IMG/VR virus record: IMGVR_UViG_2671180770_000023
Reading direction: 5' to 3' (one strand)
Length of the DNA: 10,401 nucleotides
From: a virus
Taxonomy: Duplodnaviria; Heunggongvirae; Uroviricota; Caudoviricetes
Shown here: piece by piece, positions 4,361-10,401 of the stretch
Layout of the letters: every line of letters starts with the position of its first letter
Numbering within the stretch: the first letter of the stretch is position 1
Notes under the pieces: model-generated
The model's input: only the letters and a program-made list of their open reading frames with translations
Databases searched by the model: none
What the model was told of the DNA's origin: nothing
Position numbers and translations under genes: made by a program

Positions 4361-4855
4361 TTATAAAAACGCGTCGCACTCGTCTGTTGTTATTGCGTTA
4401 GTCTGCGTTACCCCCTTAACTTTCCGCGTAATATATTCATGTCCGTAAACTTTTGCGGCAGGCTTCATAGCCTTGCCAAAGTCATTTACGTTTAGCGGTT
4501 TGCTCCTGCCTGCGTATGCCATAAACGCCAGATAGACGCGGTAAAGGCTGTTCCTGGTCGTGTACTTCACTGAATCGCCACCGCCGCCCATCATCAGGCC
4601 GCGTGCTTCCTCCAGAAAATTCAGGAACTGGCAAAACTCAATAACCGGATCCGTCTGTTGCTTTATTGCCAGAGCTTCATCACCGTCACGCTGTTCCAGT
4701 AGTAAAGCCCGTGCCTTCTCAGGGTCGGTAAAGTTCGCCAGCAATCGGCGGATAATGACAGGGATTTCAGCCGCGATCTTTTCCGGTAGCTCCCTGTCTT
4801 TTTCGGCCTCACTGACGATATTGTCGAAACGGAAAATCACGCGACGACGTGCCAC
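4361..4855 (-). CDS. P4-family primase/helicase, C-terminal segment, out of frame with the upstream segment (164 aa)
   Basis: Begins at a GTG. Sequence (A)RRRVIFRFDNIV...DPVIEFCQFL continues the conserved post-NTPase region expected after ...GVW in this family. Overlaps the upstream ORF by 19 nt in a different frame. Confidence 0.7.
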   Translation of the reverse strand: MARRRVIFRFDNIVSEAEKDRELPEKIAAEIPVIIRRLLANFTDPEKARALLLEQRDGDEALAIKQQTDPVIEFCQFLNFLEEARGLMMGGGGDSVKYTTRNSLYRVYLAFMAYAGRSKPLNVNDFGKAMKPAAKVYGHEYITRKVKGVTQTNAITTDECDAFL

Positions 4856-6108
4856 ACCCCGGCCCGTTCGGTGAATATCATCGGGTTATTGTTGGTCGCC
4901 AGCACCACCGCCCTGATTACAGCCGTGAAACGCTTTTCGTATTTCGGGTTAATTTCCACGGGGTCACCGCCCGTGATTTTCTTGATGCCCGTTCCTTCGC
5001 CTGTATATTTCGGCTGGTCAGCCAGGACGATAAGACGACTCCCGACAACCTGCGCACGTCCACCAGCATCATCAAGCGATGTCATTTCAGCGCTTACCGT
5101 GTTCTGTTTCCCTGCCAGAAGGCTGGCTATGTGCGTGAATGTACTTTTACCGCTCCCGCCGTCTCCGGTGGCCTCAATAAACATCTGCCAGTCGTACCGG
5201 TTCGCCATAATCATGTACAGCGCGGCACATATACGCATCATCTTGCGCGGGTCTTTTCCGGCTGCGTGCTTAAGCCATTTATGAAAGTTTGGCGCGTTAT
5301 CGCGGATGTTCTCCCCTGGTGCTGGTGGCGTGTACTCAATGCCGTTGTGCGTGGTGATCCAGTTCTCCGGCGTGTGCGGGGAAAATTCCCCCGTTTTCAG
5401 GTCAAGCGCACCATTGGCGAACGGCAGCAAATCGCCGGACGGCTCGCCCATTGGTTCGGCAATAACTTTTAACGCTTCCACGGCGTTATTGATTACGCGC
5501 TTGCTGAAAGTGGCCCTGTGCTCTGAATAGATCGCCACCATTTCGCGGCTAAGTTCCATTGTGCTGACCGGACACCATACCCCGCCGCGCCATACGTGAA
5601 CGATTTCACTTTCCTGATGCACACAAACGCCATCAAAGCGCTCGGCAAGCAGCTGCGCGCGCTCACTGTCTGCCATTTGTGCCAGTTGCGTATTTTTCTG
5701 CTCCGGCATGGTAAGCCCTGCGGCAATATTTTCACGCTCAGCATTCAGATAGCGCCGCCAGTTTTCACACTTCTGGACGTGCATTCCTTCGTGGTAAAAA
5801 TTTGCGTCCTGAATATCTGCCGCCGCCAGCTTCTGACCAATCTTTTTGGTCTCCACCAAATCCAGTTCTCCGGCCTGGTACAGCCTTACGCGTTTTTTTC
5901 CATCCGGAACAATTTTCAGTGCATCAAGTTCGGCAAGCTGATTTGGCCCAAGCCACACAGGCGGCACATTATCGCCGGATGCGGGGCCGTCCTGCTCCTG
6001 CCACTGTTTTGCATGTGCCCACGCATCACTACCCGCGAAAATAATTACCTCTGTGTCTTTGTGTTTTATTCCGCGTGGTTGTTTTTTTACGTTCGGTGCC
6101 AGTTTCAT
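4837..6108 (-). CDS. P4-family (D5-like) primase/helicase, N-terminal domain plus P-loop NTPase segment (423 aa)
   Basis: Walker A GDGGSGKST, Walker B-like RLIVLAD and KKITGGDPVEINPKYEKRF motif typical of the phage/plasmid primase P4-family C-terminal domain. AGGGG SD 6 nt upstream. ATG overlaps the upstream stop as ATGA. Confidence 0.8.
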   Translation of the reverse strand: MKLAPNVKKQPRGIKHKDTEVIIFAGSDAWAHAKQWQEQDGPASGDNVPPVWLGPNQLAELDALKIVPDGKKRVRLYQAGELDLVETKKIGQKLAAADIQDANFYHEGMHVQKCENWRRYLNAERENIAAGLTMPEQKNTQLAQMADSERAQLLAERFDGVCVHQESEIVHVWRGGVWCPVSTMELSREMVAIYSEHRATFSKRVINNAVEALKVIAEPMGEPSGDLLPFANGALDLKTGEFSPHTPENWITTHNGIEYTPPAPGENIRDNAPNFHKWLKHAAGKDPRKMMRICAALYMIMANRYDWQMFIEATGDGGSGKSTFTHIASLLAGKQNTVSAEMTSLDDAGGRAQVVGSRLIVLADQPKYTGEGTGIKKITGGDPVEINPKYEKRFTAVIRAVVLATNNNPMIFTERAGVWHVVA

Positions 6109-6860: not shown

Positions 6861-7080
6861 GTACCCCTCCGCATTTTTTTTCGTTAGAAATAAGCGTTCT
6901 TCTTTCCTGTTCATCGATCAGGAATACGCAGACCTCACCGCTAAGGCGTTTAAGTAAGCCGATGATTGCCCCTGATTCGCTGTCGGTCATCATGCCAGGG
7001 TAATCCTCTGCCAGTGCGCAAATAACTTCGATTTGGTGGGCGCGTTCTGCTGCCTGTTGTAGTGTGATTTCCTGGCTCAT
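6850..7080 (-). CDS. Hypothetical small protein (76 aa)
   Basis: ATG at 7080 overlaps the stop of the Icd-like gene as ATGA. The longer ORF-track version (start 7200) would overlap the Icd-like gene out of frame. Confidence 0.5.
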   Translation of the reverse strand: MSQEITLQQAAERAHQIEVICALAEDYPGMMTDSESGAIIGLLKRLSGEVCVFLIDEQERRTLISNEKKCGGVHVQ

Positions 7081-7244
7081 AAGCCTACCCCCTGACGAAT
7101 ACGGGCGACAAAAATCAGATGTGCGTGCGGCAGCTGGGCGCGGGCTTCGCGTTCTGTTGCTGCCGTGACGGTAAAGAGTGATGTTTGTTTTTCCTGGCAC
7201 TGCATAAAGCGCCAGACAAAGTAAGGGCGTGCGGATACAGCCAT
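7077..7244 (-). CDS. Icd-like / Ash-family-like small protein, copy 1 (55 aa)
   Basis: Motif VWRF...TEREAR...FVARIRQG. TAGGAGCC SD 8 nt upstream of ATG at 7244. Family call is from recalled motif, not a search. The frame stays open upstream to 7580 (see findings). Confidence 0.5.
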   Translation of the reverse strand: MAVSARPYFVWRFMQCQEKQTSLFTVTAATEREARAQLPHAHLIFVARIRQGVGL

Positions 7245-7530
7245 GTGAAAGGCTCCTACAGTAATTTTAAGGAGTCTCGCTACTACGCTGCTAAACGGGG
7301 TGGCGAGACGTAACAGGGTTAGCAGACTGGCACTGTAGGAACCAGCGAGCGCAAAGGCTCCCCCGTTACGCCCCGCCATAATGCGGGTATGGGTAGGCTT
7401 ACGGACACAAAAAAACCGCATATCGGAATATAAGCGGCTGTCCGCTACAGTATTCAGGCTGCTAAACCCGGTCGCCATGTGGGCGACGGGGGAAGCATAC
7501 AGCCCCGTTATAATTTTTTGCAAGCGGTTT

Positions 7531-7728
7531 TTACGCATGATGTGACCCCTGACGAATACGGGCGGCGAATACAGCAACACAACCGGACGGGCAACGGCTA
7601 CGCGCTTCGCGTTCCGTCCAGGCGGTTACGTGGATGATTTGAGATTCTCCGGCACTCAGTGCCAGAAAACGCCACACAAAGGCCGTTTGTGTGTGTACAA
7701 GGTGTGGTATATGATTTACAGCAACCAT
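7531..7728 (-). CDS. Icd-like / Ash-family-like small protein, copy 2 (65 aa)
   Basis: Motif VWRF...TEREAR...FAARIRQG, paralogous to copy 1. CTAGGAGCC SD 5 nt upstream of ATG at 7728. Confidence 0.5.
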   Translation of the reverse strand: MVAVNHIPHLVHTQTAFVWRFLALSAGESQIIHVTAWTEREARSRCPSGCVAVFAARIRQGSHHA

Positions 7729-7897
7729 AACGGCTCCTAGTTTACGTTGTTGGTTAGAAGCCCTGCGAGTGGTAACGACACTTGCGGGGCTTTGTCTTTT
7801 CATCGATTACCTTGATAAAGGTGTCAGCCACGTCAATAGTGTTTTTCCGTTTTCTTGTGTGTATACTGTCAGCCACCTAATAACGAGGAAATCAGAT
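7729..7897. promoter_or_regulatory. Divergent intergenic control region between the leftward early operon and the rightward small-gene pair
   Basis: Plus-strand -10-like TATACT (7862-7867) upstream of the RBS GAGGA (7884-7888). Direct 10-bp repeats TGTCAGCCAC at 7822-7831 and 7867-7876. I could not find a convincing -35/-10 pair for the leftward operon. Confidence 0.45.
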
Positions 7898-8077
7898 ATG
7901 GCAACAAAAGCAGTTAATGCAAAATCCAAAAAGCTTGAGGCTCGAGTACCTCACGCAATAGCTGATGCTGTAGAAAATTTAAAGGAAGATGGCGAAAGTA
8001 CAGGGCAATTTATCGTTTCGGCACTTGAAGGCGAGATCAAACGCCGCCAGCGCCGCAAGGCCAAAGAATCAGAATAA
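7898..8077 (+). CDS. Small DNA-binding protein, probable ribbon-helix-helix (Arc/CopG-like) regulator (59 aa)
   Basis: Internal ATG with GAGGA SD 9 nt upstream, preferred over the SD-less start at 7769. KLEARVPHAIADAVENLKEDGESTGQFIVSALE fits a strand-helix-helix pattern. Basic C-terminal tail. Confidence 0.55.
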   Translation: MATKAVNAKSKKLEARVPHAIADAVENLKEDGESTGQFIVSALEGEIKRRQRRKAKESE

Positions 8078-8134
8078 TCACTATCAGCGCCGTGGTGTGA
8101 GGTATTACGGCGCATTGCTATGCAGGACAACACA

Positions 8135-8308
8135 ATGACTGATAAAGAATTGACCAAAACATTATCACCGGCACGGAAAAGACGGCGCAGAAAGATAGAG
8201 CATGAATCAGAAAGATTCGCGCCATGTGCTTTTGCCCTTGAGCAATTCCTTAAAGAGTATAGGGAAAAGCGCTCATTGCAGGTATGGCAACGAACTGAAC
8301 CAGACTGA
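8135..8308 (+). CDS. Hypothetical small basic protein (57 aa)
   Basis: Second ATG chosen because AGGA lies 7 nt upstream. Contains an RKRRRRK stretch. Followed by a terminator at 8404-8430. Confidence 0.45.
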   Translation: MTDKELTKTLSPARKRRRRKIEHESERFAPCAFALEQFLKEYREKRSLQVWQRTEPD

Positions 8309-8403
8309 TTGCATTGCCCACCAGCCTGATAGCGGCTATCATCCCCGTGCTTATGTTTGGGATCACATACACATAAGGCGCAGCGGGTTAATTGTTCAGA
8401 AAG

Positions 8404-8430
8404 GCGGCTCCATATCGGGGCCGCTTTTTT
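8404..8430 (+). terminator. Rho-independent terminator closing the plus-strand gene pair
   Basis: GCGGCTCC (8404-8411) pairs with GGGGCCGC (8417-8424), one G-U pair, 5-nt loop, then T6 (8425-8430). Confidence 0.65.
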
Positions 8431-8456
8431 CGTGTTTGTCATATCTGTGATACCCG

Positions 8457-8663
8457 TTAAGCAGCCGTTCCGCGTGCTTCCTGTTCGCGTTCTTTCTGCC
8501 AGGCCAACACATCATCCTCATACCATCCGCGACGGCGTAAACCAACGCGAAAACCCTGCGGAAATTCTCCGGCGTTGATCATGCTTTGCAGCGTGCTGTC
8601 TGCCTTGCTGTGGATAATTTTTTTTACTTCCTGGCGAAAGATAATTTTTCTGATTGCTTCCAT
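8457..8663 (-). CDS. alpA: AlpA-family phage regulatory protein (68 aa)
   Basis: STLQSMINAGEFPQGFRVGLRRRGWYEDDVLAWQKER matches the AlpA / prophage CP4-57 regulator pattern (recalled AlpA: ATIYDWLNPKSPRYDATFPKKRMLGVKSVGWIEAEIDEWLSQR). AAGG 8 nt upstream of ATG at 8663. Confidence 0.8.
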   Translation of the reverse strand: MEAIRKIIFRQEVKKIIHSKADSTLQSMINAGEFPQGFRVGLRRRGWYEDDVLAWQKEREQEARGTAA

Positions 8664-9159: not shown

Positions 9160-10401
9160 CTACACGGCTCGGATACCCCTTTTACCACTGGCGAGGGTTA
9201 CGCCCGTCGCCGCAGCCTCGACAAATTCGCCCCACCAGCGCATCAGCACGATGCGTTTTTCTATGTAGTTGCTCCGGTTGTATGCCCGTCTAACTTCGTT
9301 GGTGTCGACGTGGGCAAGTGCCGCCTCTATTACGTCCGGCTCGAATCCTTCCTCGTTCGCTGCTGTGCTGAATATGGCGCGTAATCCATGAGACACCAGC
9401 ACGCCAGCGAATCCCATACGCCGCAATGCTGCGTTAGCTGTCTGGCTGTTCATCGGCTGCTGTGGGTCTTTCAGACTTGGGAAAACGTAATTGCGGTGGT
9501 GGCTGATTGGTTTCATGGCCTCCAGCACCGCCATAGCCTGACCGGAAAGCGGGATAACGTGATCCCTGCGCATCTTCATGCGTCCGGCAGGTATCGTCCA
9601 TTGCTTCGCGTCCAGGTTGATTTCATCCCACCGCGTTGATGACGCTTCGGCGGGACGGGTTACGGTCAGTAACTGCCATTCAATCAGTAATCTGGTCTGC
9701 CGTTCTGTTGCCGATACTGATAAAGCCTGCATAAGCTCCGGCAGCTGTTCGGGGCGGATTGTTGGCATATGTTTTTTTACAGGTGAGGGAAACGCCTTAC
9801 GCACATTCATAGCCGGATTGGCATCAATCAGCCCACTGTTGGCGGCGTAATCCATTACCTCATTAACGCGCTGTAAAACCCGCTTGAGTGTTTCCAGGTT
9901 GCCGCGCTCCTTGATGGGGGTAAGCACTTCAACGAACCTTCGGGCGGTGAGGGTATCTATTGGCGTGTTGCCGATGAACGGGAATACATATTTATCCAGC
10001 GAACGCCAGATGTCTTTAATCGTGTTGGGGGCCAGATTCTGGCTGATTTTCACCTGGTACCATGCCGCCGCCACATTTTCGAACGTGTTCCCTTGTCTTC
10101 GGGCCTCTGTCTCTCTTTTTTGCCTCTCGTGGTCCTGCGGGTCAGTTCCGGCACTGATTAACGTCCTGTACTCGCTACGGCGTTTTCTGGCATCAGCCAG
10201 GGAAACATCTTCAAGCGATCCAAAACTCAGCAATATTCTTTTTTTGTCCGATGGTCGGTAGTAGGAAAATCTCCAGAGTTTTGATCCAGACGGTTTGACC
10301 AGGAGAAAAAGCCCTCCGCCGTCCTGCAGGGTGTACTCCTTTTGCGCTGGTCTGGCTGCTTTGATCTGCACTGTGGTTAATGGGTGTGTTTTTCTCGCCA
10401 T
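9160..10401 (-). CDS. int: Tyrosine recombinase, P4-type integrase (413 aa)
   Basis: N-terminal arm-binding-like region (GGGLFLLVKPSGSKLWRFSYY...) typical of P4-like integrases. Catalytic H-x-x-R (HGLRAIF) and C-terminal Tyr region (RAYNRSNYIEKR). ATG is the last three bases of the window. Confidence 0.9.
   Translation of the reverse strand: MARKTHPLTTVQIKAARPAQKEYTLQDGGGLFLLVKPSGSKLWRFSYYRPSDKKRILLSFGSLEDVSLADARKRRSEYRTLISAGTDPQDHERQKRETEARRQGNTFENVAAAWYQVKISQNLAPNTIKDIWRSLDKYVFPFIGNTPIDTLTARRFVEVLTPIKERGNLETLKRVLQRVNEVMDYAANSGLIDANPAMNVRKAFPSPVKKHMPTIRPEQLPELMQALSVSATERQTRLLIEWQLLTVTRPAEASSTRWDEINLDAKQWTIPAGRMKMRRDHVIPLSGQAMAVLEAMKPISHHRNYVFPSLKDPQQPMNSQTANAALRRMGFAGVLVSHGLRAIFSTAANEEGFEPDVIEAALAHVDTNEVRRAYNRSNYIEKRIVLMRWWGEFVEAAATGVTLASGKRGIRAV

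Follow-up and report, generated by a model that had tools for sequence, protein, structure and literature searches.

A small YlcI/YnfO-family protein and repeated putative operator sites in a divergent regulatory switch of an Escherichia coli phage-satellite island, present here in a deletion form

The window, by which we mean the whole stretch of 10,401 nucleotides analysed here, is part of a phage-satellite island and carries a P4-type integrase gene at 9160-10401 on the minus strand. The island also encodes a DUF4222 protein, a primase, an SSB, a lambda-E-like capsid protein and a Nu1-type small terminase, and this is the gene content of capsid-forming and classical Gram-negative PICIs (PMC6092414, PMC10111431), in which C4/isrK immunity RNAs are present as well (PMC10111431). 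The master regulator published for Gram-negative PICIs is the activator AlpA, a role that was established experimentally (PMC6092414), and antiterminator activity has been described for a Pseudomonas AlpA (PMC9371919). The region considered below is the regulatory switch of a P4-integrase-type satellite of E. coli that resembles the capsid-forming PICIs, and its genes are arranged as follows.

7077-7244, minus strand: second Icd-like gene, with the primase gene downstream.
7531-7728, minus strand: first Icd-like gene and first gene of the leftward operon (NCBIfam NF033153, 64.7 bits).
7898-8077, plus strand: ylcI-like gene, 59 amino acids, for a predicted ribbon-helix-helix (RHH) DNA-binding protein and presumed repressor.
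8135-8308, plus strand: ORF B, 57 amino acids, basic and helical, matched by phrog_21027 only; variable cargo of the ylcI unit.
8398-8430, plus strand: intrinsic terminator of the rightward unit, a 14-bp stem followed by TTTTTT, facing the end of the alpA-like gene.
8457-8663, minus strand: AlpA-like gene, convergent with the rightward unit.

The ylcI-like gene and ORF B form the sole rightward unit, and all other listed island genes are leftward. The first-pass annotation of this DNA had described a divergent switch region with genes for a 59-aa and a 57-aa protein opposite an Icd/primase operon. Both ORFs have these sizes, and the rightward unit is indeed opposed to the minus-strand Icd-like genes, which are followed by the primase gene.

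The same annotation had proposed HMM searches on both small proteins. When these were run, the 57-aa protein was matched by phrog_21027 only, and the 59-aa protein was assigned to the NCBIfam family NF041551 (YlcI/YnfO; formerly DUF3950) with 60.6 bits against a cutoff of 30, its residues 9-50 aligning with positions 1-42 of the 42-position profile. The identical RefSeq protein WP_000201456.1 bears the name YlcI/YnfO, and PHROGs places the protein in phrog_949, function unknown. The identical 59-aa protein occurs on more than 1000 contigs. The family is narrow: the 90% library has 88 clusters of it, Enterobacterales throughout, and in a set of 1.84 billion 95 representatives reach E ≤ 1e-3. 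The AF2 model (34 homologs, pLDDT 89) has an extended N-terminus followed by helices at residues 19-28 and 35-58, so that the order of beta-strand, helix and helix that marks the RHH superfamily (Arc/MetJ/CopG) is present in the prediction, and the earlier description of the protein as RHH-like is borne out at the level of the predicted fold. Pfam contained no family at E ≤ 1 for the 59-aa protein and no match for the 57-aa protein either, and matches of the 59-aa protein to Arc-like PHROGs reached E values of only 0.09-0.3. Since a Foldseek search of the model against the PDB returned only matches at E > 5 and a PDB sequence profile search returned no chain at E ≤ 10, the RHH assignment stays a prediction, albeit a well-supported one. 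A tblastn search of the 59-aa protein against 50,697 phage records gave no match. A literature search on YlcI/YnfO/DUF3950 and on PICIs combined with RHH proteins found no functional study; YlcI/YnfO appears in papers as an unexplained accessory gene only (PMC13612085). The 57-aa protein may alternatively start at 8120, which would give 62 amino acids, and its AF2 model, a two-helix hairpin with a pLDDT of 70, was too weak for a structure search.

The intergenic region between the two divergent units holds the following elements.

7821-7831, plus strand: putative left operator site GTGTCAGCCAC, an O1/O2 hybrid left by a 25-bp deletion, adjoining the leftward -35.
7831-7836, minus strand: -35 hexamer TTGACG of the leftward early promoter, whose partner -10 is deleted in the window.
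7862-7867, plus strand: -10 hexamer TATACT of the rightward (ylcI) promoter, at a fixed position in relatives.
7866-7876, plus strand: putative operator O3, overlapping the final 2 nt of the rightward -10 and the predicted ylcI transcription start.

The first-pass annotation had reported a 10-bp direct repeat whose second copy overlaps the TATACT hexamer. The 10-mer TGTCAGCCAC is found exactly at 7822-7831 and 7867-7876, at a spacing of 45 bp, and the overlap with TATACT (7862-7867) is seen. Both copies extend to 11-mers, GTGTCAGCCAC at 7821-7831 and cTGTCAGCCAC at 7866-7876. The -35 region of the rightward promoter, GTGTTT (7839-7844), is weak. Within the window the signal is modest: with up to one mismatch the pattern has 3 matches against 0.6 expected, and 5 of 200 shuffles reach 3. 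By our estimate some 0.6 repeats of 10 bp within 60 bp should turn up in 10 kb, but only about 0.01 in this 170-bp intergenic region. The real support for a regulatory reading of the repeats is to be sought in the comparison of related loci rather than in these window-only statistics.

A scan of one genome per species yielded 70 loci with a ylcI-like gene, spanning Escherichia, Pectobacterium, Xenorhabdus, Yersinia, Serratia, Proteus, Klebsiella, Enterobacter, Edwardsiella and others. In nearly all loci (L001-L081) the gene lies ~170-200 bp from a divergent Icd-like/primase operon, and in nearly all an integrase gene lies downstream on the opposite strand. About 60 loci have a common scaffold in the 140 bp 5' of the gene, which runs in the order O1, ~14 nt (more where O1 is inverted), O2, NTCAA, ~28 T-rich nt, TATACT, O3, ribosome-binding site and ATG. 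The sites O1 to O3 are 11-bp sequences of the form GTG-N5-CAC, and normally there are three per locus. At least three copies of a locus-specific 9-mer were present in 62 of 73 distinct upstream regions (shuffled mean, 1.8), at stereotyped positions of about -102 to -115, -77 and -32 from the ATG. In nearly all loci the first base of O3 is exactly 32 nt 5' of the ATG, and O3 shares the core of O2; O2 lies, again in nearly all loci, directly before NTCAA, in which TCAA is the leftward -35 TTGA of the minus strand. A leftward promoter TTGAnn-N16-18-TAnnnT was recognizable on the minus strand in 64 of the 73 upstream regions and is absent from the window and other deletion forms, and the rightward -10 hexamer, [TC]AnnnT, occupied positions -36 to -31 in 65 of the 73 (TATACT in 52). 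O1 is thus found at the start of the leftward promoter, O2 fills its spacer and O3 sits on the rightward -10/+1, as would be required of a repressor acting on both promoters.

The identical 59-aa protein was also found in ten further E. coli contexts. Protein and sites are combined there with three unrelated replicases (DUF927, AAA_25 and DUF5906), with two integrase types and with two AlpA types, and the switch is therefore a mobile module in itself. It is also an optional insert, because the ylcI position is empty in an O157:H7 PICI whose Icd operon is the same; the earlier statement that islands usually place their repressor here is contradicted by this PICI. In E. coli K-12 the name-giving ylcI lies in a lambdoid prophage context beside a lambda-type cos and nohD and is without the GTG-N5-CAC triplet. 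The window protein does not share this context and therefore represents a satellite-borne subfamily.

The N5 core is identical among the copies within a locus, and 15 core types are distinguished between loci. Each type goes with a particular sequence of the predicted N-terminal beta-strand of the protein, as in the following pairs of strand and core (further pairs exist).

KKLEA with TCAGC
KRFDV with TCGGA or TCCGA
QQLNA with AATCG
QMTTV with AAATA or ACATA
LQVSV with AACAC
QS[VI]T[AV] with TCTTA
QT[LIV]AA with TTGAA
QSLKS with TGGCC

The pair KKLEA/TCAGC recurs in Escherichia, Xenorhabdus and Pectobacterium despite diverged spacers and helices. Residues 14 and 12 are the protein columns most informative on operator type and Arg16 is invariant, so that residues 12, 14 and 16 present the alternate-residue pattern of a presumptive RHH recognition strand. 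The partial Mantel correlation between operator and strand, with the rest of the protein held, was 0.44 (p ≤ 0.0005), but the covariation is not independent proof of contact, since the rest of the protein has an equally high partial correlation with operator type (0.44) and since protein and sites, 30 bp apart, are co-inherited. In 9 of 11 genomes having at least two modules, the modules were all of different types, as orthogonal immunity types would predict. The comparative evidence supports the view that the repeats are operators of the 59-aa protein.

Set against these relatives, the window is incomplete. In all ten other E. coli contexts the region reads ...AAAGGTGTCAGCCAC TATATTAGTAAC[GA]G GTGTCAGCCAC GTCAA... 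and has three sites, with the Icd and ylcI starts 194 bp apart; in the window they are 169 bp apart and a single left site is present. E. coli 042 (NC_017626.1, around 1,840,783) and RM10466 are examples of the three-site form. The 25 bp lost amount to one repeat unit plus a spacer. The leftward -10 (minus-strand TAATAT) is part of this spacer, and in the window no TAnnnT is left 16-18 bp from TTGACG. Since the leftward -10 is deleted, the early promoter of the window is probably inactive, and the repressor would for the same reason control little besides itself, probably serving mainly to autoregulate ylcI and its cargo gene. A master role cannot apply in the window, because the promoter to be controlled is broken. 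The two-repeat description of the first-pass annotation was therefore right in that both copies are real, but it missed the three-site normal form, from which the window derives by a 25-bp deletion. The sole match of a consensus promoter scan, TTGATA-17-AATAGT on the plus strand (7812-7840), is regarded as a chance match, since it owes its existence to the deletion junction and is unconserved.

The leftward operon carries, in addition, two RNA elements with their presumed targets.

7297-7251: b2/a2 targets of the C4 RNA, read from the sequence by eye.
7296-7383, minus strand: C4-type antisense immunity RNA (Rfam RF01695, 71.5 bits, gathering score 45).
7451-7500: a1/b1 targets of the C4 RNA (RF03163, 45.5 bits, just under the gathering score of 46.7).
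7687-7715, plus strand: candidate antisense promoter TTGTGT-17-TATGAT within the first Icd codons, with a weak -35.
7722-7803, plus strand: predicted cis-antisense RNA of ~80 nt, covering the Shine-Dalgarno sequence, start codon and 5' UTR of the first Icd-like gene (Icd1).

The elements b2 (GUUUAGCAGC) and a2 (ACUGUAGGAGCC) precede the second Icd-like gene (Icd2), and a2 covers the Shine-Dalgarno sequence of that gene and is complementary to the C4 loop GGUUCCUACAGU. Judged from its sequence, the C4 cassette is complete and has the c4-icd arrangement of P1/P7. The predicted antisense RNA consists of a 5' stem GCCA/UGGU, a hairpin A, a conserved UUGUGGUUAGA linker and a GC-rich hairpin B (7757-7793), which together with a U-rich tail is a predicted terminator. 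The loop of hairpin A is the complement of the Icd1 Shine-Dalgarno sequence (anti-SD). Across 25 loci the RNAalifold consensus was -22.8 kcal/mol on the plus strand vs -7.3 on the minus strand, with 76 G.U pairs on the former vs 2 on the latter, and the single-sequence fold gave z = -4.97 vs -1.76. Compensatory change was seen in 14 of 23 pairs; none of 500 shuffles was as good, and slid controls were 34-49% paired. The reading of the 7757-7793 hairpin as the leader of the leftward mRNA was rejected, since the structure is far better on the plus strand. A covariance model of the motif had 87 matches, all on this strand, and one of them lies in the O157:H7 PICI without ylcI (L084); the antisense RNA therefore belongs to the Icd start, not to the repressor. 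No Rfam family matches the motif. In all 25 representative loci a TAnnnT precedes the complement of the Icd start codon by exactly 10 nt, despite divergent Icd N-termini, which suggests a promoter with a transcript start at the 5' stem. We infer, by analogy with sar in P22 immI, that an RNA of ~80 nt may act in cis as an antisense RNA and block Icd1 translation. Elsewhere, a hairpin in the gap between ylcI and ORF B (8087-8113) is conserved in relatives, yet with z = -1.3 it is not thermodynamically unusual and was set aside. The first-pass annotation had placed the small RHH protein in the position of a master regulator. What stands of this is a divergent switch with a presumed repressor; as a description of control it falls short, since the C4 cassette and the predicted antisense RNA would add further control and some related PICIs are without the module.

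We consider it probable that the locus as a whole is best explained by an RHH repressor acting on a three-site divergent switch, supplemented by RNA layers, with the window as a deletion form. The anatomy of the switch, its conservation, its covariation and the fold predicted for its protein are the observations from which this reading starts, and DNA binding, repression, RNA expression and the lifting of repression by a helper phage would be its steps. A dimer of the 59-aa protein would read the 11-bp GTG-N5-CAC site with its N-terminal beta-strand, through residues 12, 14 and Arg16. An intact leftward early promoter (TTGACG-17-TAATAT) would drive the Icd genes, the C4 RNA and the primase gene; RHH dimers on O1 and O2 would exclude RNA polymerase from it and so shut the early/replication operon, and a dimer on O3 would limit ylcI transcription, that is, exert autorepression. 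The antisense RNA and the C4 RNA would block the Icd genes and the replicase gene, either in translation or by stopping read-through into them, the C4-type RNA by masking the Icd2 ribosome-binding site. Protein and sites would have diversified jointly into at least 15 specificities that act like immunity types. Induction might be brought about by an anti-repressor from the helper, or else by AlpA-dependent read-through from the alpA promoter over the 8398-8430 terminator, and such read-through would run antisense to ylcI and on into the early operon.

Other accounts of the repeats and of the rightward genes have to be weighed against this reading. Repeats of this kind could be non-functional products of duplication or slippage that have nothing to do with the small protein, and the facts that the repeat is only modestly unexpected within the window and that repeats themselves promote deletions would fit; but the sites keep their positions from genus to genus, each locus has a single core, with 15 types between loci, and the sites are conserved where spacers have diverged, all of which makes this account very unlikely. 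Direct repeats that adjoin a primase operon also recall replication-origin iterons, which P4 has, or they might be sites for AlpA or the integrase. The same sites, however, accompany three unrelated replicases (DUF927, AAA_25, DUF5906), two integrases and two AlpA types and vary only with YlcI, and on this ground iterons, AlpA sites and integrase sites were ruled out, the chance that we assign to them being minimal. As for the two rightward genes, a type II toxin-antitoxin pair of an RHH antitoxin and a small toxin is brought to mind by a single relative (L031) with a BrnT-like gene downstream. Against it, the ORF that comes next differs between loci in family, in size (35-262 aa) and in distance (-16 to +584 nt), and often there is none; most downstream ORFs form clusters of one, and many loci lack such an ORF in the vicinity. 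ORF B itself is limited to Escherichia/Shigella, where its 36 homologs are all hypothetical proteins with a core SPARKRRRRK..EHESERFAPCAFALEQFLKEY, a conserved ...ERFAPCAFALEQFLKEY and variable tails; neither L001 nor any of the 70 loci of other species has it, and E. coli relatives carry other small genes in its place. By this distribution the 57-aa gene is Escherichia-only variable cargo and not a conserved part of the switch. The gap between ylcI and ORF B is 57 nt, PADLOC gave no match in the window, and no toxin match was found in PADLOC, Pfam or NCBIfam. Since the downstream partner is not conserved and the 57-aa gene is variable cargo, a toxin-antitoxin pair is extremely improbable, in line with the first-pass annotation, which had thought it the less likely reading.

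A closer competitor accepts that YlcI binds the sites and takes it as only a local autoregulator of its own cargo unit, with the early operon under the control of the C4 RNA, the antisense RNA and AlpA. The C4 cassette is complete, the antisense motif accompanies the Icd start also in the PICI that lacks ylcI (L084), activation by AlpA is proven (PMC6092414, PMC11773190), ylcI is followed by variable cargo genes and the leftward -10 is missing in the window, all as such a division of labour would have it. In the 64 of 73 regions with a leftward promoter, however, one of the three sites falls exactly within the spacer of that promoter and another on its start, and since autoregulation needs O3 alone, the placement of O1 and O2 would be purposeless for pure autoregulation. 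We thus regard local autoregulation as the sole function of YlcI as rather unlikely, and repression of both promoters remains our preferred reading. Two observations sit uneasily with the latter: the rightward -35 is weak, and related PICIs function without the module.

The arrangement resembles several known systems in part. In P22 immI (Mnt, Arc), too, a small RHH repressor is divergent from the operon that it represses, the operator overlaps back-to-back promoters and a short antisense RNA (sar) covers a ribosome-binding site in the repressed operon. P22 is a phage and the present element a satellite, there is no detectable sequence homology with the 59-aa protein, and the P22 repressors have one operator each, in contrast to three 11-bp sites here; the operon repressed in P22 leads to an antirepressor (ant), that of the satellite to Icd, C4 RNA and replicase. 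The P1/P7 immI (c4-icd-ant) and the P4 CI RNA share with the satellite the C4 RNA, the a1/b1 and a2/b2 targets and an icd-like Shine-Dalgarno sequence within a2. In P1 and P4 the corresponding promoter has neither a repressor protein nor an operator, whereas the satellite has an extra Icd-like gene, the RHH switch and the predicted cis-antisense RNA upstream of its C4 cassette. The tripartite operator, with two sites on the lytic side and one on the promoter of the repressor, recalls lambda OR (OR1-OR2-OR3, PR/PRM), but this likeness is formal and limited to layout: the satellite spacings are 25 and 45 bp, and the lambda repressor is an HTH protein with a cleavable domain, unlike a 59-aa RHH protein. 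A replication operon under a tiny repressor and a cis-antisense RNA is also known from pMV158 (CopG and RNAII) and R1 (CopB and CopA), although copG and repB share a transcript and the site bound by CopG is a 13-bp pseudo-palindrome, whereas ylcI is divergent and its element integrative. SaPI Stl and the Rpr of Gram-positive PICIs are likewise encoded divergently from an excision/replication operon. Stl, however, is a large HTH protein, co-directional with int and inactivated by helper proteins; the ylcI gene encodes a 59-aa RHH-type protein, is convergent with alpA/int and is optional among islands, unlike Stl/Rpr, and by architecture the 59-aa protein is not an Stl-type repressor.

Gram-negative PICIs had so far been regarded as having no repressor. 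That YlcI-type RHH proteins are the missing quiescence repressors of many Gram-negative satellites, with at least 15 immunity types allowing several satellites to coexist in one cell, induction by a helper or by AlpA read-through, and a three-layer lock on satellite replication completed by a new class of cis-antisense RNA and by the C4 RNA, is a wider proposal that we make tentatively and consider doubtful as it stands. If the proposed function is true, a subset of satellites in Enterobacterales (PICIs, capsid-forming PICIs and P4-integrase islands) would have a protein repressor with swappable specificity, a named but functionally blank E. coli protein family would gain a role, and orthogonal pairs of a 59-aa repressor and an 11-bp operator would be usable as synthetic-biology parts. 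The conserved antisense motif over the Icd start, absent from Rfam, would be a new RNA family.

Deletions like that of the window also occur in other loci. Similar between-repeat deletions were found in Xenorhabdus, where two sites are left in L006 and one each in L016 and L068. Among 134 complete E. coli genomes with the operator type of the window, a junction-specific query found the deletion junction in one, O22:H8 RM10809-3, in which it lies in a different island. In the window itself the primase gene is frameshifted by a 1-nt deletion relative to L001, and this defect, together with the loss of the early promoter, makes the island look disabled or in decay. In the O22:H8 genome the RepA helicase is annotated as frameshifted; the co-occurrence of promoter loss and replicase loss (n = 2) is noted as a remark only.

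A second switch module lies in tandem behind the first in some islands, namely the comparison loci L072 (4548-4864), L076, L001 (10743-11059) and L083 (9638-9953), as well as L080 (4548-4921). These second modules are of two kinds. In one, the 59-aa RHH-like protein is a different one (VSTHKNERRG...) and the module has a palindrome of its own, TGTGTAATGTGTATATACACATAAACACATTA; the other encodes a YlcI paralog with another specificity and three sites of its own. The RNA motif lies ahead of every second module, and an ORF-B-like gene comes after it.

The RNA motif over the Icd start was also found at 5177-5258 of L084, a PICI of E. coli O157:H7 strain 8368 that lacks a ylcI gene, where it overlaps the end of a co-directional 247-aa gene upstream. 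Therefore, the predicted antisense RNA is a general feature of Icd-like genes. Between ylcI and ORF B, a hairpin (GCGCCGTGG...ACGGCGC, 8087-8113) is present that was also found ahead of ORF-B-like genes located behind RHH genes of either kind. This hairpin lacks a U-tract, and its folding energy is ordinary (z = -1.3).

ORF B is overlapped in another frame by an 82-aa ORF (8202-8450, plus strand), and in some relatives (L073 and L078; 108 aa) the gene call falls on this frame rather than on ORF B. Since distant homologs retain the motif P..FALE.F of the ORF B frame, the sequence comparison favours ORF B over the 82-aa frame.

Loss of sequence between the direct repeats of the operator has occurred on several occasions, in L006, L016, L068 (Xenorhabdus) and L083 (E. 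coli), and leaves either two sites or one. The repeats are evidently a hotspot of recombination or slippage that would be able to silence the early promoter. A lone operator copy with one mismatch, TGTCAGCCAT, was noticed at 1527-1536 within an ORF of the leftward structural region; this single match is no more than expected by chance.

The E. coli K-12 YlcI that gave the family its name (L082, 6252-6446) also has an RHH-like sequence pattern. Its gene adjoins a lambda-type cos site and nohD, and GTG-N5-CAC sites are absent there, therefore the YlcI family appears in at least two genomic contexts.

In the leftward operon, 7251-7500 (minus strand) holds a C4-type antisense RNA immunity cassette with all parts present:

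7451-7500, minus strand, a1/b1
7409-7445, minus strand, isrK-like terminator hairpin
7296-7383, minus strand, C4 RNA
7297-7251, minus strand, b2/a2

Icd-like gene 2, which starts with the ATG at 7244, has its Shine-Dalgarno sequence inside a2, and another Icd-like gene is located upstream of the cassette.

The primase region (4361-6108, minus strand) contains two ORFs of 423 aa and 164 aa, split at about 4855. Compared with the 582-aa gene of L001, one nucleotide is missing here, which causes the split, so the primase is probably a pseudogene. Among the other E. coli islands, only L083, from strain O22:H8 RM10809-3, shares the window's 25-bp deletion in the operator, and its RepA helicase is frameshifted.
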